64,000 nucleotides of DNA, taken from sequence record OR983334.1. One strand, given 5' to 3'. The stretch comes from Escherichia phage 1-6bf. A program made the translations under genes and the position numbers. Below the pieces are notes generated by a model. The model searched no databases. It was given only the letters and a program-made list of their open reading frames with translations, and had not been told where the DNA came from. This document shows, piece after piece, positions 2,791 to 15,144 of this stretch; position 1 is the stretch's first letter; each line of letters starts with the position of its first letter.

Positions 2791-5779
2791 ACTCTATCGT
2801 TAACCCATTGATAGCAGCATTACTGTTAACATCATTATCTATAACATTATAGAAAAGGTATGGATGGTTCAGTCTCACCGAGACATGTCTGTCAACACCG
2901 ATTGTATAAGTCTTAGATGTGTGTGGGTGTCCATATTCATTTGAGAATTGACTACCTCCAGCTTCAAAGGTATAGGTGCCTGAGCCAGTTGTCTGAGGAC
3001 GGAATCTATTAACATGCTTCTGATTCCACTCATTCGTCACATTATCAAAATCTATACCAGTCCTCTCCAACCTCATTTCCAGAGGCTTCTCTATAACAGC
3101 ATCATTTAATCTGTCATAGAAATAGTCAAGAGCGCCTACATCCACTTGGTAGAATCCCCTCAAGAATGAACCTACTATCGTAATCCTCTGTCTGAAGTTT
3201 GTTGCATCCTTTCTCCAAACAAGCTCTTTGATCGATGGGTCATCCCAAGTGATTTCTTGGAAGTCAGCCCAAATTGGACCCCTTTCAAGGACAGGAGGAT
3301 CAACCAAACCAATACACTGAGCATATGGGATAGTACGGAAAGACCAAGTATCAAACTCGTAATTCCATACAGCAGCTTTAGTACAAGCATAACTTTCCTT
3401 AGGCTCTCCCGGACCTACATAAAGAATCCAAACCTCCTTTTTATCTTGATGTAAGTGAACTCTGGTAGCTAACGGGTTGACCAGACAGATCTCATTAATC
3501 AGCATGTTCTTGACACGGTTGGAAGCGATTGACTTCTTAGTTGCGCCGTTATGTAAGATCACATCGTTCTGAGTAACAACGAAATGGCTACCTTCTACTT
3601 CAACTGCACACTCAGGAGCAAGGATACCAGAGTCATTAAAGAGTTTCTTGAACATCAGTGGTTGATACGTGTTATTAGTCGGAGAACCAATGTACGTTTC
3701 AAACTCCGTGTAAACGAACAAGTAATCTTTAAGAGGTAGGATATCAATCAAGCTGCCATTGGAGTCTGCTAAATCAATGTAACCAGCATAACCATTTTCC
3801 AGAGCCTCAGTCTGCCCAACTATGTTCGAAGCTAAGTCAGATGTTACTAAACGATCATAGGCAAAGTCATCCCATAGTGTAGGAGCTTTGTTCTCATTAG
3901 CAAAATTAGACCAACGAAGACGAAGTGGGTAGTTAGTTGTAACGCCAGAAGCATTTGATTCCCTCATATTCAGGGCAAAGAGCCTGTTGTTAAAAGAACG
4001 AACTCTTTCACATTTCCAGTTGAACTTCTTAACTGAAGGATTCCCATCACTATCTACCACTGTTTGTTCTCCCCACCCCGGAAGATCAGTAAAATGTTCA
4101 GATTCGAATTCTTTTACTTGTGGTGTTTCATAGTGAGTTGTAGCAACTGCACAGTTTGATATAACAGCATGATACCAAGGATAGTCGTCAAACGCGTCAT
4201 AATCCCTTTGTGTCATTTGGCTGACAGAACATGTTATGTTAATCTCACCTTTGCGAAGAGCTGTAAGTTTAATAGATTTACCAGTTACTGAAGTAGTTGA
4301 GACATAGCCAGTTTTGTCTACAGACCATAAGTACGAGTAGTCACCCTCTGGAGACGCTGTAGCTGTAATAACGATCTCCTCTCCTACATCAAGAGAAGCA
4401 CTAACTACATCTAATGTTACAGAGTCTAAAGGAGTGGCAAAAAGAGAGGCTCTTGCAAAACCTTCCATGTCATCAACGTTTGAATAATCATAGAAGCTAT
4501 TTCCTTCAGACATTCCAGTAGTATCAATCCCAGAGGAGGGTGATGCAAAATATAAAACCTCTTCTGATTCAGGAACTACTACATCCTCGACCACTTCTGG
4601 AGCATCTGGTTCAGTAGAAGACTCAGCCATAAGAGAGGTTCTCATCATCCTTCCAGCCAAATCTACACGAACTGTACAGACAGCGGTTCTGTTGCCCTCT
4701 TGAGTAGTAGCAGTAATCTCAGTGAATCCAGCTGTAATTGCAGTGATGGTAGCCTCTGTGCTCGTACCAGACACTGTAGCAATATTCGGGTTAGAGGAAG
4801 TCCATGTTATATTTTTATTAGGAGCATTCGTTGGAGACACTGTAGCTGTGAGAATATATTGAACCCCTCTATTAATGGTAACATCTGTTTGACTCAGAGT
4901 AATACTATCAATCTGTGGGATTACATTAACAATACATGATGCAGTTTTTGTTCCATTGTCTGCTGTAACAGTTGCTGTCCCTTCTCCATTAGCTACAAGC
5001 ACTGCTGTGAGTGTGTTAGCATTAGGTGTTATAGAAATGATAGAGCCATTAGTAGTGGACCAACTTACAGAAGTTTTACCAGTCACCGCAGTTATGGTAG
5101 TATTTCCACCTTTACGGACAGTCAGAGTATCCTGACTCAAGAAAATACCTGAGTCTCCGTCAATAATATTGACAGCAATCTGAGCTGATACAGATTCATC
5201 TTTAGTCTGAACTGTAACTACGAGATTACCTTCTTTATTCAAAGACGTCAAAGAGGCTTTCTTAGAGTCAGTAGGGTCTACAGTGATCTGACCGTAAGAA
5301 GAGTTACTAACACTCCAAACAAGTTCAGGGTTATTAGCATCTTCTGGAGAGATTGTAACTTCTAGAGATTTAGTTTGGTTGAAGTTCATAGAAATAGTAG
5401 ACTCTTTAGGAGTAATCCTAGAGACTACAGGGTATATCTTGATATTAGCAGAAGCTTTTTTAGTGACCGTAGCAACTTTCCTGCTGATATCAGTTAAGCT
5501 TTCATCTGTTAGTTTATATAACTTCTTATTGGTTCCCACAATAAGAAAGCTATTACCTGCACTATAGTAATCGAAAGGCATAGATATGAAAGATAATGGG
5601 GTTAGATCCTTATCTTCATCTACGTAAGAAAGAGGGGCATTGCCCCCCGTCTTAAAAACTCTCTGCTCAACAAATCGAGCGTTTATAGCGTTAGTGAAAG
5701 CGTTAGGAGCTAAATCAGTAGGTGCTTGGTCAGCAATAACACCGACAGCACCGAGTGATTTTATTGGATACAACGCCAT
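2768..5779 (-). CDS. Large virion structural protein with tandem bacterial Ig-like (Big_2-type) domains (1003 aa)
   Basis: ORF track; repeated Thr/Ser/Val-rich segments (ITAVTGKTSVSWSTTNGSI..; VTISPEDANNPELVWSVSNSS..) typical of Big_2 domains. Confidence 0.5.
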   Translation of the reverse strand: MALYPIKSLGAVGVIADQAPTDLAPNAFTNAINARFVEQRVFKTGGNAPLSYVDEDKDLTPLSFISMPFDYYSAGNSFLIVGTNKKLYKLTDESLTDISRKVATVTKKASANIKIYPVVSRITPKESTISMNFNQTKSLEVTISPEDANNPELVWSVSNSSYGQITVDPTDSKKASLTSLNKEGNLVVTVQTKDESVSAQIAVNIIDGDSGIFLSQDTLTVRKGGNTTITAVTGKTSVSWSTTNGSIISITPNANTLTAVLVANGEGTATVTADNGTKTASCIVNVIPQIDSITLSQTDVTINRGVQYILTATVSPTNAPNKNITWTSSNPNIATVSGTSTEATITAITAGFTEITATTQEGNRTAVCTVRVDLAGRMMRTSLMAESSTEPDAPEVVEDVVVPESEEVLYFASPSSGIDTTGMSEGNSFYDYSNVDDMEGFARASLFATPLDSVTLDVVSASLDVGEEIVITATASPEGDYSYLWSVDKTGYVSTTSVTGKSIKLTALRKGEINITCSVSQMTQRDYDAFDDYPWYHAVISNCAVATTHYETPQVKEFESEHFTDLPGWGEQTVVDSDGNPSVKKFNWKCERVRSFNNRLFALNMRESNASGVTTNYPLRLRWSNFANENKAPTLWDDFAYDRLVTSDLASNIVGQTEALENGYAGYIDLADSNGSLIDILPLKDYLFVYTEFETYIGSPTNNTYQPLMFKKLFNDSGILAPECAVEVEGSHFVVTQNDVILHNGATKKSIASNRVKNMLINEICLVNPLATRVHLHQDKKEVWILYVGPGEPKESYACTKAAVWNYEFDTWSFRTIPYAQCIGLVDPPVLERGPIWADFQEITWDDPSIKELVWRKDATNFRQRITIVGSFLRGFYQVDVGALDYFYDRLNDAVIEKPLEMRLERTGIDFDNVTNEWNQKHVNRFRPQTTGSGTYTFEAGGSQFSNEYGHPHTSKTYTIGVDRHVSVRLNHPYLFYNVIDNDVNSNAAINGLTIEFAVGGRR

Positions 5780-7484: not shown

Positions 7485-10400
7485 TTATTTTTTCTCTAGC
7501 AGTTCCAGTCGCTTGATAATATCCTGCAAGCAAGACACTATCGGAGAGATGAACTCACCGTAGCGAAGACCAAGCTTACCGTCCTCACCTTCAACGTACC
7601 CACCGAAGTCGGAGATTCCCAACTTGTCTACGAGATCCTTAACTTCCTGTGCGATGAATCCATAGTGCGTACGTTTACCCGGTACTTCCGTAATAACTTG
7701 GCGAGTTTTAGGAACGGTTACTTTCTCCATCAACGGTGTTTTGATTGTTCCAATGACATTACCTAGCTCATCACGCAGATCAACCTCATGGAATACTGGA
7801 CGCTCTACTTCCTTGTCAACGAACTTACGGACGTAATAGACTTCATCTCCATCAACAACACGTTCGTGGACTTCTTCAGTTGAAACAACCTTTTCTACCA
7901 CCTGACGTTCAATCTCCTCTACACCATCTTCAATCTCTTCTACAATATTCCCACCAACAATGTTTTTGTAAGAAACAGGGTTTAGGCCCAGAATAAAGTC
8001 TGTAGATAGATTGGATCCTTGAACTTCGGTTTTTGTCGTCCCATCAGAAGTCTGGATAGTAGCGTTCGATGACCATATCTGTGACCACCTATTCCCAGAC
8101 TTACCACACGAATAGATGTTATCTACATATGGATACATCGCGGCGTTAACACCTACCTCGGAGTGGAACACAACCTTACCTGCACCTTTAGACTTAATAG
8201 TTAACGACGCATCCGGTGTAGATCCACCAGAGACTGTAACGGTGGCGTTGCCATTCCTGTTGTCCAGCATGATTTGTGGGTTAGAGGTTTGGCTATAGGG
8301 TACATATAACGGCCCGTTCCCGTAGTTACCACCGAGGGTTACATCTCCATTGGCTGCGGAGATAATGCTTCTTCGCATCTGCCCGTTATCTTCCCAACCA
8401 GATCCAATGTAGAGTGGATACTGCTCATTCGCTGGGTTACTAGCAGCAGCGTGCAATGCGTAATATCCACTATTATTGGCAATGAGACTAATATTTTCCT
8501 CAAAGCCAGCATCATTGATACGATGAACCCGAAGTGCACTGTTGAGGTTGTTAACTGTACCCCAGAATTTATATTCTGTTGATGCTGAATCCCCCGGAGC
8601 AGAACTAAGGGTAACATGCTGAGGGTCTGTAAAAGCCACTACGCGGTAGTCGACACCATTAATAGTCATTGTCTGAGGTACTGATGCGTCGGGAATCACA
8701 AACGGATCACCACTAATGCGGGTTACAGTAGTGCCGGATACACTGCATACACCACTGCCGTGGTAGTAACACAAGCTGTACGAGTGGGTTGCATTTGATC
8801 CCCAAGTAACAGGTGACCCATTGATATTTTTAACAGTAAAACCATCTGCTGTTACGGATGCTACAGTATAAAGTGCATCATAGATAGCAATAGGTTTACC
8901 GATCGCTTCAGATGTAATGCTAGCACCAGACAGGATTTTTACAGCATTGCTGCCTGAGATTGTCTGACATGACCCGGATTTAGAACTTGGATATATCGCC
9001 ATTTCTGTAGGGTGAGGCCATTTAGATGCACGAACACCTAACCACCCAGAACTACCATCGGTAAACATTCTAATACCATCAGCACCGTTATATGGCACAG
9101 CCCCACCAATCTGAATTCCGGTTGACGTCACTCCGTTATCACCGAAAACAGCAGATGTGGTCATCCTCTCAGTAGTTCCTGGCTTAGCCCATTGGGAAAC
9201 TTTAGTTGTCCCATCCGACATAATGCGATTTACAATAGCACCATAGAATTTACCAGCACCAGTAAATGTCACTGGTTCTTCAAATACGAAACGGCGACCG
9301 TAACATTCTACATTACTATTGAGGAGGTATGTCCCGCTTGGAACAATGATCTCACGACTTTTAGGTAGAAGTGTGTTGGCAGAAATAAAGGAACTTGCAG
9401 CATCCGTAGTGCCGTTGTATTTATCACCAAGAAAGTCAAGAATGCTACTGAATTGTGCATTTATGTCATGCTGAGTACGAGCCGCAGCGCCAGCGAAAGG
9501 AGCCTTGACCCCAATTAGTGCATCACCTTGAGCTACGTTAGACGTATTAGAAAGCTGAGCTGTTGGTACACGACTATCCGCATTAGTATTAGCAGCAGCA
9601 GCAGCATCTTTAGCTTCGTTAATCTTCGTTTCAAGTAATGCAGTTTCAGTAGACAGTTGACCGAGAGCTACTGGTTCGTTGTTAGCTACTGCATCAGGAA
9701 TCACTGGAGACTGCGTGAAAGTAACCTTGTTAGTCATTGAGGTTATATCAGAGTTAGCCCCACTTTTAGCAGCAACAAGAGACATACGCGCTGCATCTGC
9801 TGTTGTTGCCCCAGTGCCACCCTGTCCAACCCCTAACGGTATCCAACCTGTTCCAGTGCTGCTGCCCCATGCACCGTTATCCTGGATACGCAAGCGGTTG
9901 GAACCGTTGGCTGTAAGGAAATCGCTATAACTACCACCTTGTATTACGCGGTTGACACCGAGATTCTCTCTGGCACTGACCACCGTTGTTGCCCCCGTAC
10001 CTCCATTAACAATAGGTACAGTGTCCAAAGTAGAAATAGGTCCAAGTCCTAGATTAGTTCTTGCACCAGCAGCATCTCTTGCCCCTGTACCACCTTGATT
10101 TACTTTAAGAGCAATAGGTCCTGTACCTGTTGAGGAATAACACCCCCAAGTGTCGCCATCTTTGTTTACGTATAAAAAAGCGCTACCTGTTCCATTACGT
10201 AGCTGAGTTTCACCGCTAGTTAACTGAGTAAGACGGTCAACTGAGAGATTTATACGAGCATTAGCAGCATCTTTTGCCCCTGTACCACCTTGAGCTACAG
10301 ATAGGGCAGTAGTCAACCCACGAATCTGGTTAATATCGTTGTTAACGCCAGAAGCAGCTGCGCCAGTAACTTGACTTACTGTGTAGTCTCCAGCAGCCGG

Positions 10401-11090: not shown

Positions 11091-11840
11091 TTATACTCTA
11101 GAGGTACGTATTCCATAAATATCTGGCAGGCTACTCTGAAGTCTGGTCATGTTGTTGGGTATCGCAATAGGAGAACCTGAGTACTCCTGTTTCTTATCTT
11201 GCTCAACCATCTCATCAAGAATAGCCTTACCTAACGCAGACCATTTTTGAACACCGTTATCATCCTGAACAAAAAGACATGCATGCCTAAGGGTAAAGTA
11301 TAGAAGAAGTTCTGGAGCAATCGTAAGTATTGCACTAGTATCTTCGTCTGCGTGAAACTCCGGAGGATCTGCATAATAGCTTAGAATTACAGAGTTCTCT
11401 GCTGGAATAGCAGGACTTCCATCTTCAGGGTAAACAGGGGTATCAGCATCAATCAGTGGATAGAACAAGAAACGACTTCCGAAACGAGCAAAATTAACAG
11501 GTTGATTATTCCAGTGAGAGGGGTTAATTGTGCCATGCTGTTTACGATAGCTTATCTCTTCTGGGGAAGTTACTTGGAATATTGCTCCATCTTTAGCTCT
11601 CATTATCCATTGAGCTTGCAAGTAGTCCGGTGGGATGAATGCTATACCATTCTTGATACTCAGATACACTTCCTTTTCCAGAGGAGGGATACGTAAGTTG
11701 CGATAAATCTCTTTCTCTGCAAAATTAATAAAGTTTGGAATTTGATTAACAAATTCGTCATCGTCCCTATCTGCCCAGAGGGCCACGGCTTTCTTTAGCC
11801 ACCCATAGGTATTGATGGGATATTGGACGTCAGGCATCAT
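11091..11840 (-). CDS. Virion structural protein (adaptor or tail tubular candidate)
   Basis: ORF track; position between capsid block and tail fiber; no motif recognised. Confidence 0.3.
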   Translation of the reverse strand: MMPDVQYPINTYGWLKKAVALWADRDDDEFVNQIPNFINFAEKEIYRNLRIPPLEKEVYLSIKNGIAFIPPDYLQAQWIMRAKDGAIFQVTSPEEISYRKQHGTINPSHWNNQPVNFARFGSRFLFYPLIDADTPVYPEDGSPAIPAENSVILSYYADPPEFHADEDTSAILTIAPELLLYFTLRHACLFVQDDNGVQKWSALGKAILDEMVEQDKKQEYSGSPIAIPNNMTRLQSSLPDIYGIRTSRV

Positions 11841-12342
11841 AATAAACCTCCTTCCAGTTTACGCCTTTAGTAATGAGAGATATTGTGCTTTTAGAGACCC
11901 CAAACTTTCTAGCTAAGGCTCTAGCTCCAAACTCTCTATCTCTCGGTTTGTAGTTCTCCAAACAAAAGAGAACTTGCTCTTTAGTGAGTTTGGAATTAGG
12001 GTTATCCTCAAGACTCCTAGGTGTTGAGAGGCCTGTTTCAAAAGCATGTGTACAATTTTCTTGTTGAGTACACCACTCTAGATTCTCAATCCTGTTATCG
12101 TCTTTTATTCCATTCTTATGGTTGACACAGTCCTTCCCTTCTACCTTAGGAAGAAAGAGTTCAGCTATGACCCTATGCTCTAAATATGATTTCTTTTTAA
12201 AAGTCACTTTACGATAACCTCTGTCGCCAATACACCCGGCACGTTGTCCTTTCTGCTTATTAAAGATGTTACTCATAGACCAGAAAAGATGCCCTGTATT
12301 TGGATCATAGGTAAAAGCTTCTCTGAAATCTGGCATTGCCAT
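11830..12342 (-). CDS. HNH homing endonuclease
   Basis: CVNHKNGIKDDNRIENLEWCTQQEN HNH motif plus C-terminal HTH-like segment. Confidence 0.75.
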   Translation of the reverse strand: MAMPDFREAFTYDPNTGHLFWSMSNIFNKQKGQRAGCIGDRGYRKVTFKKKSYLEHRVIAELFLPKVEGKDCVNHKNGIKDDNRIENLEWCTQQENCTHAFETGLSTPRSLEDNPNSKLTKEQVLFCLENYKPRDREFGARALARKFGVSKSTISLITKGVNWKEVYYDA

Positions 12343-12410: not shown

Positions 12411-12438
12411 CGAAAAAACCCCGCCCGAAGGCAGGGTC
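12411..12438 (-). terminator. Rho-independent terminator downstream of capsid gene
   Basis: Minus-strand ACCCTGCCTTCGGGCGGGG hairpin followed by TTTTTTCG. Confidence 0.5.
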
Positions 12439-12443
12439 TAGTT

Positions 12444-12987
12444 TTAAGCAGGTGTTACACCAGTAAAAGTGCATGTTGCATTGATGGACGGGTCAGCTGT
12501 CAAACTTGCTTGAACAGTAACTTCGCCACTTGCAGCAGCATCTAAGGTTAACGCACCAGCGGCGCTTACTGTACCAGCTTCTATAGGAGTTACAACAAAC
12601 GTGTAATCCGCAGCAGCAGAATTAGTTACAGTAAACATGGTAGTGAAATTAGTGGAGGAACCACCAGTTTTACCCGTAATTGGACCCTTAGCTACAATAG
12701 TAGGAGCAGGAGCAACAATTTCAGAAATGGTTGCTGTACCAGAAACACCTTCTAAAGTTGCAGTAATGGATACATCAGTGGATTGAGACGCACTCGGAGC
12801 AGTATACAAACCCGACTGAGTGATAGAACCACCGCCTGTCACTGACCAAGTAAAGCCAGTTGTTTCGGTAGAACCATCACTTTTCTCCGCGCTTGCAGTG
12901 AACTGCCGAGTAGCCCCTGTCTCTAGACTTGATAAAGACGCAGGGCTAACAGTCACACTGTCTACTGTTACGCCGCCACCTTTCCCG
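12444..12987 (-). CDS. Ig-like (Big_2-type) C-terminal extension of the capsid protein, in the -1 frame
   Basis: -1 frame is open across the capsid stop codon; reads GKGGGVTVDS then an Ig-like domain (TVSPASLSSLETGATRQFTASA..). Confidence 0.5.
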
Positions 12988-14026
12988 CAGCAGTGAACAG
13001 AACGCCGGAAGCATACGGGTTGCGGTGACGCAGACCAACTTCCATTTCAATCATCCACTTCTCGTAAGAACCGTCTTTAGCCAGTTCAGTACGTTTCGGA
13101 GCACGCAGAACCATCTGAGTCCAGTCAGCGCTACGGAAGAAGTAAACTGCATCGGTAGGCATCCAACGGTTAACGATGATTTTGTAGCTCTGGCCCAGCG
13201 GGTCAGTGATGCTGTTAACTTCGTAGATGAACTGCTTGGTGTTCTCAAAGATACGCTTACGTGAACCCTGAGTATTTTCTTGCAGACCAGCGAAGATCTT
13301 AGCATGAGCTGGGTTAATCATGATGATATCTGCTTCAGAACCAGCGGTATACAGTTGCAGAGTCATATCAAAGATATCAGCTTCGTCAAAACCAATGTTA
13401 GTGGTCGGGTTAGAAGCATTCTGTGCAACTTTAACAGTTACTGCACCAGTATCTGGGTCAGCAGGACCATTCTTGGTCTTGTCAACAACACCACCAGCCA
13501 GACCGCCGTGAGCACACAGGAACTGGAATGCACCAGTCTTACGAGCTGCATGAGTGTCGTTCAGACCAACAGTTGCAGGATCAGTTGCAGAGTTAGTCAG
13601 GTACTGGTCAGCCAGAACGTCGGTACGAGCCTGACCGGATAGAAGGATTTTCTCGAGGTCACGCTTGATCTCTTTACCTTTCTTCTCCAGCTGATACATC
13701 AGTTCACGACCACGACCGTAGTTAGCGGTGGTGTTAGCAGTATCAGAAACGCGAACAACCTTACGCAGAATCTGAGTAACGTTAGATTTGATAACAGTCG
13801 GTTTCATTTCGCCGTCTTCAGCACGAGAGCCTTCGACGTGTGCGTTATTACCGTCAACGCTTGCCAGTGCATCGGTCTGCCAGCTAAAGATAGTCTGGTT
13901 AATAGACTCTTTACCGGTCATGGATACGAACGGGGTATCCTGAGGGGACAGAACAGAAATCCAGTTAGCAAAAGAAAGTTTTTTACCATTCTGGTCATAC
14001 GATACAAATAAAGTTGGATTAGCCAT
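12968..14026 (-). CDS. Major capsid protein (352 aa)
   Basis: Position after portal and scaffold, size, strong downstream terminator, frameshift-linked Ig extension. Confidence 0.6.
   Translation of the reverse strand: MANPTLFVSYDQNGKKLSFANWISVLSPQDTPFVSMTGKESINQTIFSWQTDALASVDGNNAHVEGSRAEDGEMKPTVIKSNVTQILRKVVRVSDTANTTANYGRGRELMYQLEKKGKEIKRDLEKILLSGQARTDVLADQYLTNSATDPATVGLNDTHAARKTGAFQFLCAHGGLAGGVVDKTKNGPADPDTGAVTVKVAQNASNPTTNIGFDEADIFDMTLQLYTAGSEADIIMINPAHAKIFAGLQENTQGSRKRIFENTKQFIYEVNSITDPLGQSYKIIVNRWMPTDAVYFFRSADWTQMVLRAPKRTELAKDGSYEKWMIEMEVGLRHRNPYASGVLFTAAGKVAA
12981..12987 (-). other. Candidate -1 programmed ribosomal frameshift site (slippery heptamer G_GGA_AAG)
   Basis: mRNA GCG GGA AAG GUG GCG GCG UAA; heptamer GGGAAAG fits X_XXY_YYZ, four codons before the capsid stop. 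Confidence 0.5.
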
Positions 14027-14067
14027 GTTATGTTAGCTCCTATACTATTAATAATTTAATTTGTCGA

Positions 14068-15144
14068 TTAATCTACGAGGAATTTGAATGCGTCTTCGTG
14101 ACTAACGCGACCCTCTGCGAATGCCTTGGCAACCTTAGCGTTGTCGGGCTTATTGGAAGTGCGAGACTTTGCAGCATCAGACTTCACAACCTTGCGTGGA
14201 GCACCGGGACGTTTAATCTTAGCCATCACCTGTTGCTTACCTTTATCAAATTGGTATGCTTTGTGGAGAGCTAGGAAAATAGACGGACGGTTTTCCTTCA
14301 ATACTTCTTCTTCAGTAGCACCTAAGTCAATTGCGTATTGCATTAAGTTTTGATATAAGTTTTCATCCCAATTTGGAATCTCACGTTTCAGAATATTAAC
14401 ACATTCAATACTCTTGGCTTGGAAAGCTTCCTGCTCTTTAGCTGCTGCTTCCTGCTTAATACGGACCTGAGCCTGTTCAAGCTGTTGACGGCGAGCTGTG
14501 TACTTCTCTAGGAAACGTTTGTTTTCAACATATGCTTGAGGATCTTCTACTGCAAGCTTGTCCCAATCAAAACCGTTATAATCTTCAATTACTCGGTCTG
14601 CTTCTAAAGACGCTAGTTCTAATACATCCTTCAAACCTACTACACGTTCCTCAAATGCTTCCATATGACGCTGAAGAGTAGTCTCTCGTTCCGTCATATC
14701 GGCACCAGTAAGATAGCCATTAGAAAGTTCTTCAATAGTCATCTCACGTCCGTCAGGAAGGGTGATAACGGTTTCGTAGTCTACATCAAAGACTTCACCT
14801 TCACCGTCAGCAGAATCATCTTCATATTCTGCATCGCTTGAATCTTCTTCCTCTTGCTCTTCTGCTTCAGAGGAGTCTTCTTCATCTTCTTCGACTTCGC
14901 CTTCCTCTTCACGATCTTCCCAACCATCTTCATCTTCGAACTTAAGCTCATCGCTTTCACCGAGAAGGTCGGTATCAAAGTCGAAATCGTCACCGTCTTT
15001 TTCCGGGAACTCATCGTCAATGTCCACTTCTGGTTCTTGTTCAGATTCTAATCGACCGAGTTCTTCTTTGAAAGAACCTTTCAGGTCATCCAGTTGGAGG
15101 AAAGATTTAAAATCGTTCGGGTCAATATAATTATCTTGTGGCAT
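14068..15144 (-). CDS. Scaffolding protein candidate
   Basis: Highly acidic N-terminal half and helical, charged C-terminal half; sits between portal and capsid genes. Confidence 0.45.
   Translation of the reverse strand: MPQDNYIDPNDFKSFLQLDDLKGSFKEELGRLESEQEPEVDIDDEFPEKDGDDFDFDTDLLGESDELKFEDEDGWEDREEEGEVEEDEEDSSEAEEQEEEDSSDAEYEDDSADGEGEVFDVDYETVITLPDGREMTIEELSNGYLTGADMTERETTLQRHMEAFEERVVGLKDVLELASLEADRVIEDYNGFDWDKLAVEDPQAYVENKRFLEKYTARRQQLEQAQVRIKQEAAAKEQEAFQAKSIECVNILKREIPNWDENLYQNLMQYAIDLGATEEEVLKENRPSIFLALHKAYQFDKGKQQVMAKIKRPGAPRKVVKSDAAKSRTSNKPDNAKVAKAFAEGRVSHEDAFKFLVD

Follow-up and report, generated by a model that had tools for sequence, protein, structure and literature searches.

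Programmed -1 ribosomal frameshifting very probably gives Escherichia phage 1-6bf an Ig-extended minor capsid protein, as in other Kuravirus-type phages

How is an Ig-like reading frame expressed that opens within the 3' end of the major capsid gene of Escherichia phage 1-6bf and continues, in another frame, past the capsid stop codon? The locus lies in a window of 64,000 nucleotides, the whole stretch of DNA analysed here (record OR983334.1), and its features, all on the minus strand, are collected in Table 1. An earlier note on this DNA had proposed that a -1 programmed frameshift fuses the Ig-like cargo to the capsid protein. Our analysis supports the proposal, since its sequence-level predictions all hold: the phase of the slippery site, its conservation, the lack of a start belonging to the downstream frame, and the occurrence of single-ORF fusions in relatives. 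We consider this to be, very probably, the -1 programmed ribosomal frameshift site of the Kuravirus (phiEco32/SU10-like) major capsid gene, giving a minor capsid protein with an Ig-like extension.

Table 1. Features of the capsid locus, with positions in the window
Feature	Position	Strand	Description
Shine-Dalgarno AGGAG	14037..14041	-	10 nt 5' of the capsid ATG; read from the sequence ...tataggagctaacataacATG
Major capsid protein gene (zero frame)	12968..14026	-	352 aa, 38.7 kDa, HK97 fold; ATG 14026-14024, TAA 12970-12968
Slippery heptamer G_GGA_AAG	12980..12986	-	In phase with the capsid ORF, 16 nt before the capsid TAA
-1 frame extension	12447..12980	-	178 codons, GGGVTVDS...FTGVTPA; TAA 12446-12444
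Ig-like domain 1 (predicted)	roughly 12971-12717	-	Extension residues ~4-88; AlphaFold2 model
Ig-like domain 2 (predicted)	roughly 12707-12447	-	Extension residues ~92-178; AlphaFold2 model
Candidate stimulatory hairpin H1	12947..12970	-	UAACAGU (12970-12964) pairs with ACUGUUA (12953-12947)
Candidate second hairpin H2	12913..12946	-	Outer stem GCCCU/GGGGC, inner stem GUCUU/GAGAC; directly 3' of H1; RNAalifold
Intrinsic terminator	12416..12439	-	10-bp stem with 6 G-C pairs and a T-run; 5 nt past the extension stop

At the 3' end of the capsid gene the minus-strand mRNA reads ...ACT GCT GCG GGA AAG GTG GCG GCG TAA. The heptamer is, as previously claimed, of the X_XXY_YYZ type and in phase with the capsid codons, AAG being the fourth codon before the stop; the coordinates first given for it (12981-12987) were one base off the actual 12980-12986. 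The claim that the -1 frame is open across the capsid stop, with the reading GK GGGVTVDS, is borne out by translation of the window: this frame stays open for 76 nt upstream and 524 nt downstream of that stop, and continues for 178 codons past the shift, to 12447. GGGAAAG as such is not enriched in the window (10 copies, with 6.85 +/- 2.3 expected). One copy of the ten, that in the capsid gene, stands in X_XXY_YYZ phase within a long ORF, with 1047 nt open before it, and leads into a -1 frame of 540 nt; the remaining nine reach 53 aa at most, and at none of them are the upstream ORF and the -1 frame both long. It is also the sole in-phase X_XXY_YYZ heptamer in the 76-nt zone where the two frames overlap. 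The 20 nt preceding it show no Shine-Dalgarno-like motif. Two other routes into the extension were rejected: readthrough, because the zero frame meets TAA and then TAG two codons on and the extension is in another frame, and a +1 shift, because the +1 frame is closed 22 nt beyond the capsid stop.

The zero-frame product matches the Pfam family SU10_MCP (PF17236) with 259.4 bits against a cut-off of 24.1, and its residues 1-352 are about 99% identical to the solved major head protein of SU10 (PDB 7z45). Judging from the sequence, the AGGAG listed in Table 1 would be the only ribosome-binding site for both capsid products. The intrinsic terminator closes capsid gene and extension as one transcription unit; a search for terminator-like sites between the capsid stop and the extension found none, and a terminator is annotated at the corresponding position in the records of SU10 and Privateer. 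Plus-strand ORFs also occur within 12444-13000, for example 12820-12996 (58 aa), antisense to strongly supported genes.

Translation of both products would start at the capsid ATG (14026). Most ribosomes would stop at the TAA (12970-12968) and release the 352-aa, 38.7-kDa HK97-fold protein, while a minority would slip back one base at G_GGA_AAG (12986-12980), where, following the literature, the P-site tRNA-Gly would re-pair from GGA to GGG and the A-site tRNA-Lys(UUU) from AAG to AAA. Shifted ribosomes would then read GGT GGC GGC GTA... for 178 more codons, so that the predicted fusion comprises capsid residues 1-349, a GGG linker and two tandem Ig-like (Big_2-type) domains, with a computed size of 527 aa and 55.6 kDa. 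This protein would be expected to co-assemble as a minor capsid subunit that exposes its Ig domains on the outside of the head; there they would probably adhere weakly to carbohydrate surfaces. The ratio of the two capsid forms would be set by the efficiency of slippage. G_GGA_AAG is among the three most efficient shift heptamers in E. coli (PMC4066793, PMC5009743), with about 0.3% shifting in reporters that lack a stimulator (PMC4066793); the published E. coli data for this heptamer lead us to expect between a fraction of a percent and a few percent. Some 2-30 of the 715 subunits per head would then be Ig-extended, if the geometry of SU10 applies.

What is the nature of the cargo? The AlphaFold2 model of the extension (pLDDT 96.7) has two all-beta domains, and its best Foldseek match is a tandem Big_2 segment of LigA (8gyr, E 6.9e-11, TM 0.59); the Big_2-CBM56 structure 7quz is also among the top matches, and Ig domains of phage Hoc, the phi29 prohead and T5 pb6 were matched as well. 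With Pfam, extension residues 8-85 score 22.1 bits for Big_2 (PF02368), 0.7 bits under the gathering threshold of 22.8. The homologous extensions of Privateer, L022 and Bas88 reach 67, 118 and 33.6 bits, respectively, and P0004 and P0007 carry PF02368. The extension is thus modelled as two tandem Ig-like domains of the Big_2 type: the Ig-like fold first read from the sequence stands, while the single domain of about 170 aa becomes two, over 178 aa after the shift. A larger capsid species is likewise predicted, with an added mass computed at about 17 kDa instead of 18. In mass spectrometry, GGGVTVDSVTVSPASLSSLETGATR would be a tryptic peptide of the extension that lies 5' of the annotated GTG (see below). 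The lysine at the shift site is itself a trypsin site, hence no tryptic peptide crosses the junction; VGLRHRNPYASGVLFTAAGKGGGVTVDSVTVSPASLSSLE is the predicted Glu-C peptide that does.

We compared the junction in 22 Gordonclarkvirinae-type loci of near and intermediate relatedness (from isolates, IMG/VR, ENA and Logan assemblies), comprising 20 distinct junctions. GGGAAAG is present in the identical codon phase in 22 of 22, and Privateer and CsaP_009 keep heptamer and phase as well, although capsid identity there is only 57%. Both synonymous sites of the heptamer (the third positions of GGG and AAA) are invariant. Protein divergence is 60-95% and domains have been inserted, yet 21 of the 22 junctions keep an uninterrupted -1 ORF, as do Privateer and CsaP_009. 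Across the loci read, the length of this ORF ranges from 180 to 543 aa; the peptide GKGG.VTVDSVTVSP is conserved from the heptamer onward. The heptamer marks the very start of the open -1 frame in Privateer and CsaP_009; in Privateer a TGA directly before it blocks this frame, leaving the heptamer as the only possible point of entry. The cargo is modular and varies between close relatives: behind the identical heptamer Privateer carries unrelated cargo, I-set plus Big_2, which argues for selection on the arrangement itself. Some relatives use GGUAAAG in place of GGGAAAG; in L022-24 (3410-3450 in L022) a GC hairpin follows this site after 6 nt, whereas the LAh_8/L025 junction shows no clear hairpin. 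Other, distant relatives join the two parts in one ORF, namely SE131 (SU10_MCP and Big_2, 586 aa) and the second capsid copy of A24 (SU10_MCP and a partial Big_2). A metagenome scan with the pattern ACNGCTGCGGGAAAGG was less informative: one of 120 matching stretches was a real capsid junction, the pattern being too short.

Could the extension be instead a separate gene, started or restarted at GTG 12956-12954, whose free product (170 aa, 16.6 kDa, N-terminus Met-Thr-Val-Ser-Pro) decorates the capsid non-covalently? A 513-nt CDS from this GTG is annotated in the phiEco32, ShigP1, IME267, MN05, CHD5UKE1 and KM01 records, the codon lies in the extension's frame 11 nt past the capsid stop, in principle within reach of bacterial reinitiation, and the SU10 cryo-EM paper considers gp10 a possible separate minor capsid protein (PMC9509320). 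However, a search upstream of the GTG (cgtaacagtagacagt) found no Shine-Dalgarno sequence, and the GTG falls within the predicted H1 hairpin. Nor is the start conserved. The first ATG, GTG or TTG of the -1 ORF shifts between codons 10, 17 (Bas88), 34, 35 (EP335 type) and 48 (KBNP1711 type), or is absent from the first 60 codons (Privateer), in no case with a Shine-Dalgarno sequence, and conservation of the peptide nonetheless reaches beyond these codons, in the 5' direction, as far as the heptamer. The suggestion that the extension ORF has no start context of its own, beyond the internal GTG, is upheld. Homologue lengths from gene callers range from 110 to 254 aa. Together with the in-frame capsid-Big_2 fusions of relatives and the larger capsid band of Privateer virions (PMC7881722), these observations make a free decoration protein improbable, although some reinitiation after the capsid stop may occur.

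The heptamer and its ORF might also persist by descent as a decaying remnant, the extension being no longer usefully made and without function, as is apparently the case in SU10. Breakage of the -1 frame leaves that phage viable, with a uniform capsid (PMC9509320; PMC9965538), and the reporter rate cited above for the heptamer alone is low (PMC4066793). Yet SU10 is the sole member of the group to have lost the arrangement (PMC9965538), and a decaying element is hard to reconcile with an ORF intact at nearly all junctions and folding confidently in the model, with invariant synonymous sites in the heptamer, or with unrelated cargo in Privateer behind the same heptamer; we regard decay as very unlikely. 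Slippage of RNA polymerase on the GGGAAAG tract, which would give mRNAs one base short, is an alternative route in some phage and IS genes (PMC5009743), with nothing specific in its favour here. The homopolymer runs at this site are only 3 nt long, and what is conserved is a phased X_XXY_YYZ heptamer, the signature of tRNA re-pairing. Productive transcriptional slippage requires runs of A or T of about 6-9 or more, and we give this explanation almost no weight. Ribosomal slippage at the capsid heptamer is the reading that we retain.

Is this slippage assisted by structure in the mRNA? Bacterial sites of the X_XXA_AAG class often, though not always, have a stimulator, either a structure 5-9 nt downstream or a Shine-Dalgarno-like sequence upstream. 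The 5' arm of the candidate hairpin H1 starts with the capsid TAA, and the GTG annotated as a start in databases lies in its loop, adjoining the 3' arm. The spacer from the heptamer is 5-9 nt; a GGC/GCC extension of the stem (12974-12972 with 12946-12944) would give the 5-nt spacer and a folding energy of -10.0 kcal/mol. The stem is invariant across the 20 distinct junctions, a situation in which covariation is impossible. The H1 stem contains four synonymous sites, all of them fixed, compared with 7 fixed sites out of 31 elsewhere (Fisher p = 0.006), and the interleaved third positions outside the stem vary. The 60-nt and 120-nt stretches downstream of the heptamer fold no better than shuffled sequences (z = -1.10 and -1.11, range about -1.1 to -1.3), as is also true of Privateer and the GGUAAAG clades, and we therefore claim no stimulator on energy grounds. 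The conservation is suggestive of a hairpin that may raise the efficiency of the shift.

H2 is a candidate hairpin with weak to moderate support from covariation: one of its pairs occurs as U-A (7), G-C (6) and A-U (2), another as G-C (10) and U-G (4). In the combined H1 and H2 model 99.2% of cells can pair, compared with 27-51% in slid controls, and the covariation score is 0.159, compared with 0.143 in the -1 slide control. A different stem-loop, CUGCUGC-GGGAAAG-GYGGCGG with the slip site in its loop, was proposed in the SU10 paper (PMC4281155) and can form in the window using G-U pairs. We rejected it as a stimulator: from the established mechanism, its 5' arm should be inside or behind the ribosome while the heptamer is decoded, and would present no downstream roadblock.

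The capsid shift at GGGAAAG is not new, its mechanism, heptamer and product having been published for Kuravirus-like phages since 2008-2014. The phiEco32 proteomics of Savalia (2008), cited second-hand, reportedly observed the trans-frame product. The same region of phiEco32 is 97.8% identical in DNA to the window, with the same heptamer, -16 nt stop distance, first 17 extension residues and 180 codons counted from GGG, and we see no difference of substance between the two. SU10 is 97.6% identical over the region, and its GGGAAAG was identified 'as in phage phiEco32' (PMC4281155). In YF01 and other Kuravirus-like members, -1 slippage at GGGAAAG in the capsid gene is described with isoforms of about 500-550 aa, and with an isoform of 892 aa in YF01 (PMC9965538). 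Privateer virions give two gel bands, and their minor capsid protein was detected by mass spectrometry (PMC7881722).

The evidence from SU10 is weaker than usually cited. In the published mass spectrometry table, coverage is 50.3% (about 265 of 527 aa) for the '9+10' entry and 78.1% (about 275 of 352 aa) for the capsid protein. The residues covered for '9+10' do not exceed those of the shared capsid part, hence the table does not by itself demonstrate peptides from the Ig domains. SU10 heads showed no additional density by cryo-EM (PMC9509320). In the SU10 sequence as deposited, a 1-nt insertion (around 8,420-8,430) brings the -1 frame to a stop after 13 codons, whereas the frame in the window is intact.

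The parallel with T7 10A/10B drawn in the earlier note is right in kind, and T3 gene 10 and lambda G/GT come closer (PMC5009743, PMC3296357). T3 and T7 likewise make a minor, C-terminally extended capsid protein by a -1 shift late in the major capsid gene, and the T3 extension is an Ig-like domain, unlike that of T7 (PMC5009743). These capsids appear to belong to another family (the Pfam match to SU10_MCP sets the capsid protein of the window apart) and use other slip sites; we take them to resemble our locus in how it works, not in membership. The reported rate of about 10% in gene 10 (PMC9965538) is not known to hold here. Lambda G/GT has the identical GGGAAAG, Gly-Lys in both frames and the same E. 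coli tRNA-Lys(UUU), with about 4% shifting (PMC3296357, Table 1), but its proteins are unrelated tail chaperones and the fusion is an assembly factor, not a virion surface protein. More generally, Ig-like domains are added to phage structural proteins by -1 shift, +1 shift or in-frame fusion (Fraser et al. 2006, reviewed in PMC5009743). The appendages reviewed there are the same in kind as ours, and the routes match those seen in relatives of the window, where the cargo consists of two tandem domains.

Our additions are small: the H1 hairpin, the relatives with GGUAAAG or a second capsid copy, and the reading of the SU10 mass spectrometry table. We put forward, as a tentative proposal that may well not hold, that the conserved H1, perhaps stacked on the covarying H2, is a previously undescribed tuning element, and that prolate phages of the SU10_MCP type have three interchangeable routes to a few Ig-decorated subunits: slippage at GGGAAAG, slippage at the near-cognate GGUAAAG, and duplication of the capsid gene with the Ig part fused in frame.

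Current annotation does not reflect the fusion. In 8 of the 8 Kuravirus-type records that we opened with an intact arrangement (Kuravirus, Suseptimavirus, Nieuwekanaalvirus), the extension stands as a gene of its own, named 'Ig domain containing protein' or 'hypothetical protein' and given an arbitrary internal start; among the records opened, only that of Privateer has a joined CDS. The proper annotation here would be a ribosomal_slippage join of 14026..12980 and 12980..12447 on the minus strand. An Ig-decorated minor capsid species would be a candidate for adherence to surfaces or mucus, and, in phages under development for therapy of E. coli infections, a natural site for display.

The mRNA at the 3' end of the major capsid protein (MCP) gene reads ...ACT GCT GCG GGA AAG GTG GCG GCG TAA CAG TAG ACA GTG TGA CTG... 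The earlier note had correctly recognised GGGAAAG near the MCP stop but placed it one base off, at 12981-12987; the heptamer lies at 12986-12980 on the minus strand. Its X_XXY_YYZ phase, with AAG as the fourth codon before the stop, is as claimed, and the -1 frame is indeed open across the MCP stop, from 76 nt before it to 524 nt after it. The post-slip peptide, GK-GGGVTVDSVTVSPAS..., continues for 178 residues, and the predicted products are an MCP of 38.7 kDa and a 527-aa fusion of 55.6 kDa. The heptamer by itself is unremarkable in number (10 copies in the window, with 6.85 +/- 2.3 expected), but its configuration here is unusual: in a single copy, an in-phase position within a long ORF that is open for 1047 nt upstream coincides with a long -1 frame of 540 nt. 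The other nine reach at most 53 aa, and in none do a long upstream ORF and a long -1 frame occur together. We hold with high confidence that the original observation is confirmed and its frameshift interpretation supported.

Genes around the capsid junction
Feature	Coordinates	Strand
Scaffold protein	14068-15144	minus
MCP	12968-14026	minus
Extension ORF in question	12444-12956	minus
HNH endonuclease	11830-12342	minus
Adaptor	11091-11840	minus

By DNA comparison, phiEco32, SU10 and dozens of Kuravirus (Gordonclarkvirinae) E. coli podophages share 97-99% identity with this region. The MCP matches Pfam SU10_MCP (259 bits), is about 99% identical to the solved SU10 head protein (7z45) across all 352 residues, and has AGGAG 10 nt upstream of its start. 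The sole strong terminator, at 12439-12416, lies 5 nt past the extension stop, and none was found between the MCP and extension ORFs. Between this terminator and the adaptor gene, whose start it overlaps by 11 nt, lies a gene for a 170-aa HNH_3 endonuclease (Pfam score 48.6 bits). The full HNH segment occurs in 10 of 85 related phage records, being present in IME267, Bas86, TH06, TH38, 1-6af and FH3 and absent from phiEco32 and SU10, a patchy occurrence typical of homing endonucleases. The same slot, between capsid extension and adaptor, in a Kuravirus-like Logan contig (ERR7365608_327, L151:2283-3131) holds a 282-aa ORF matching Pfam Collagen.

Capsid -1 slippage is already known in this phage group. 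GGGAAAG was identified in SU10 'as in phage phiEco32' (PMC4281155, 2014); in Privateer the join was annotated, with two gel bands and detection by mass spectrometry (PMC7881722, 2021); and slippage was described for YF01 and throughout the Kuravirus-like group, SU10 being the one member whose -1 frame stops prematurely (PMC9965538, 2023). We confirmed this lesion in the deposited SU10 sequence as a 1-nt insertion 30 nt past the heptamer (KM044272.1, position ~1645-1650 of locus L003: GACACTGTCTACTG versus GACAGTGT-GACTG in the window and phiEco32); combined with two substitutions, it ends the -1 frame after 13 codons. In the SU10 mass spectrometry table, coverage is 50.3% of 527 aa (~265 aa, 22 peptides) for the '9+10' entry and 78.1% of 352 aa (~275 aa) for the MCP entry. 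Capsid-derived peptides would suffice to account for the former, and a table that does not require Ig-domain peptides fits the uniform capsid seen by cryo-EM (PMC9509320).

Junctions for comparison, each comprising the MCP 3' end and the DNA beyond it, came from GenBank phages, IMG/VR, ENA and Logan assemblies and were chosen blind to heptamer presence. GGGAAAG was found in the same phase in all 22 Gordonclarkvirinae-type junctions, 16 or 19 nt upstream of the stop, followed, SU10 excepted, by a -1 extension of 180-543 codons. In Privateer and CsaP_009, where MCP identity is only 57% and the cargo differs (I-set plus Big_2), GGGAAAG directly precedes the stop; in Privateer a TGA shuts the -1 frame just upstream of the heptamer, so that the heptamer is the only possible entry point.

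Could the extension instead be translated from a start of its own? The first ATG, GTG or TTG of the -1 ORF falls at codon 10 (window, phiEco32), 17, 34, 35 or 48, and within the first 60 codons in Privateer there is none. No first start codon examined has a Shine-Dalgarno motif. The peptide GKGG.VTVDSVTVSP is conserved from the heptamer onward despite the shifting start codons. Gene callers assign homologues lengths of 110 to 254 aa, and GenBank start points vary from record to record, as expected of an ORF without a true start.

G_GGA_AAG is reported to rank in the top three -1 heptamers for efficiency in E. coli, and A_AAG is the A-site tetramer most prone to shift; the best heptamers give ~0.3% without a stimulator, ~3.7% in a favourable 3' context and far more with a structured stimulator (PMC4066793; PMC5009743). 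The same heptamer in lambda G/GT shifts at ~4% (PMC3296357). From the published rates and the 715 MCP copies of the SU10 head (PMC9509320), we infer that a head would carry ~2-30 decorated subunits.

A suggestive candidate stimulator lies downstream. A spacer of 5-9 nt separates the heptamer from hairpin H1. The 5' arm of H1, UAACAGU, opens with the MCP TAA codon and pairs with ACUGUUA; a GGC/GCC extension brings the hairpin to -10 kcal/mol. Across 20 distinct junctions the stem is invariant and the loop variable. All 4 synonymous sites in the stem are fixed, compared with 7 of 31 in the rest of the domain (Fisher p = 0.006), and the non-stem third positions interleaved with them vary. The loop contains both the annotated GTG of the stand-alone extension and the SU10 lesion, which leaves the stem intact. 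In a second hairpin that follows, H2, one pair covaries as U-A/G-C/A-U and another as G-C/U-G. The two-hairpin model has 99% of cells paired, versus 27-51% in slid controls, one of which has a similar covariation score. By folding energy the downstream sequence does not stand out (z about -1.1 to -1.3).

An AlphaFold2 model of the extension, built with an alignment of 17 homologues (pLDDT 96.7), supports the proposed Ig-like fold, with two all-beta domains over 178 residues rather than the single ~170-aa domain first suggested. Its top PDB match is a Leptospira LigA tandem Big_2 segment (E 6.9e-11), and structural matches include the phage Ig domains of RB49 Hoc, the phi29 prohead and T5 pb6. 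Against Pfam Big_2, domain 1 reaches 22.1 bits, slightly below the 22.8 cut-off, which the extensions of relatives clearly exceed. Homologue alignment indicates modular gain of extra domains among close relatives.

Single-ORF fusions also occur: second MCP copies carry SU10_MCP (10-307) and Big_2 (503-580) in one frame in Salmonella phage SE131 (L007:3001-4761, 586 aa), and SU10_MCP with a partial in-frame Big_2 in Cronobacter phage A24 (L009:4011-5096). It follows that this capsid family accommodates a covalent MCP-Ig protein as a functional arrangement. Several more distant prolate podophages (SE131, A24, L027/L028 from IMG/VR 3300033688_000038, and Aeromonas phage APT65, L010) have 2-4 tandem SU10-type capsid genes, apparently a route to a decorated subunit by gene duplication instead of frameshifting; one 438-aa copy in L027 is extended in frame at its C-terminus by ~130 aa that match nothing in Pfam. 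In L028 (~3406-3412), a dnaX-type A_AAA_AAG lies in phase 10 nt before the stop of one capsid copy, and the -1 frame opens Ig-like (KKGVNPPPTVDPTLATKTVRVKP...) and stops after ~40 codons. Three IMG/VR loci with 64-66% capsid identity (L022:3408-3445, L023, L024), whose capsid genes end ...CUG AAG GUA AAG GCG UAA, and Aeromonas phage LAh_8 (L008/L025), with a GCC CUA A variant, have GGUAAAG in place of the Kuravirus GGGAAAG, a candidate near-cognate -1 shift site. The open -1 frame that follows encodes Ig domains (two Big_2, 118 bits, in L022; I-set in LAh_8). The three IMG/VR loci have a GC-rich hairpin, GCGCCC-CUAC-GGGCGU, beginning 6 nt beyond AAG, in which a C-G pair is replaced by U-G from one locus to another.

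GenBank records of Kuravirus, Suseptimavirus and Nieuwekanaalvirus give the extension as a stand-alone CDS whose start is placed inconsistently, between 11 and 126 nt past the capsid stop, under the names 'Ig domain containing protein', 'major head protein' or 'hypothetical protein'; a ribosomal-slippage join is annotated in the Privateer record alone. The chief practical worth of the finding is that this annotation should be corrected to a ribosomal_slippage join.
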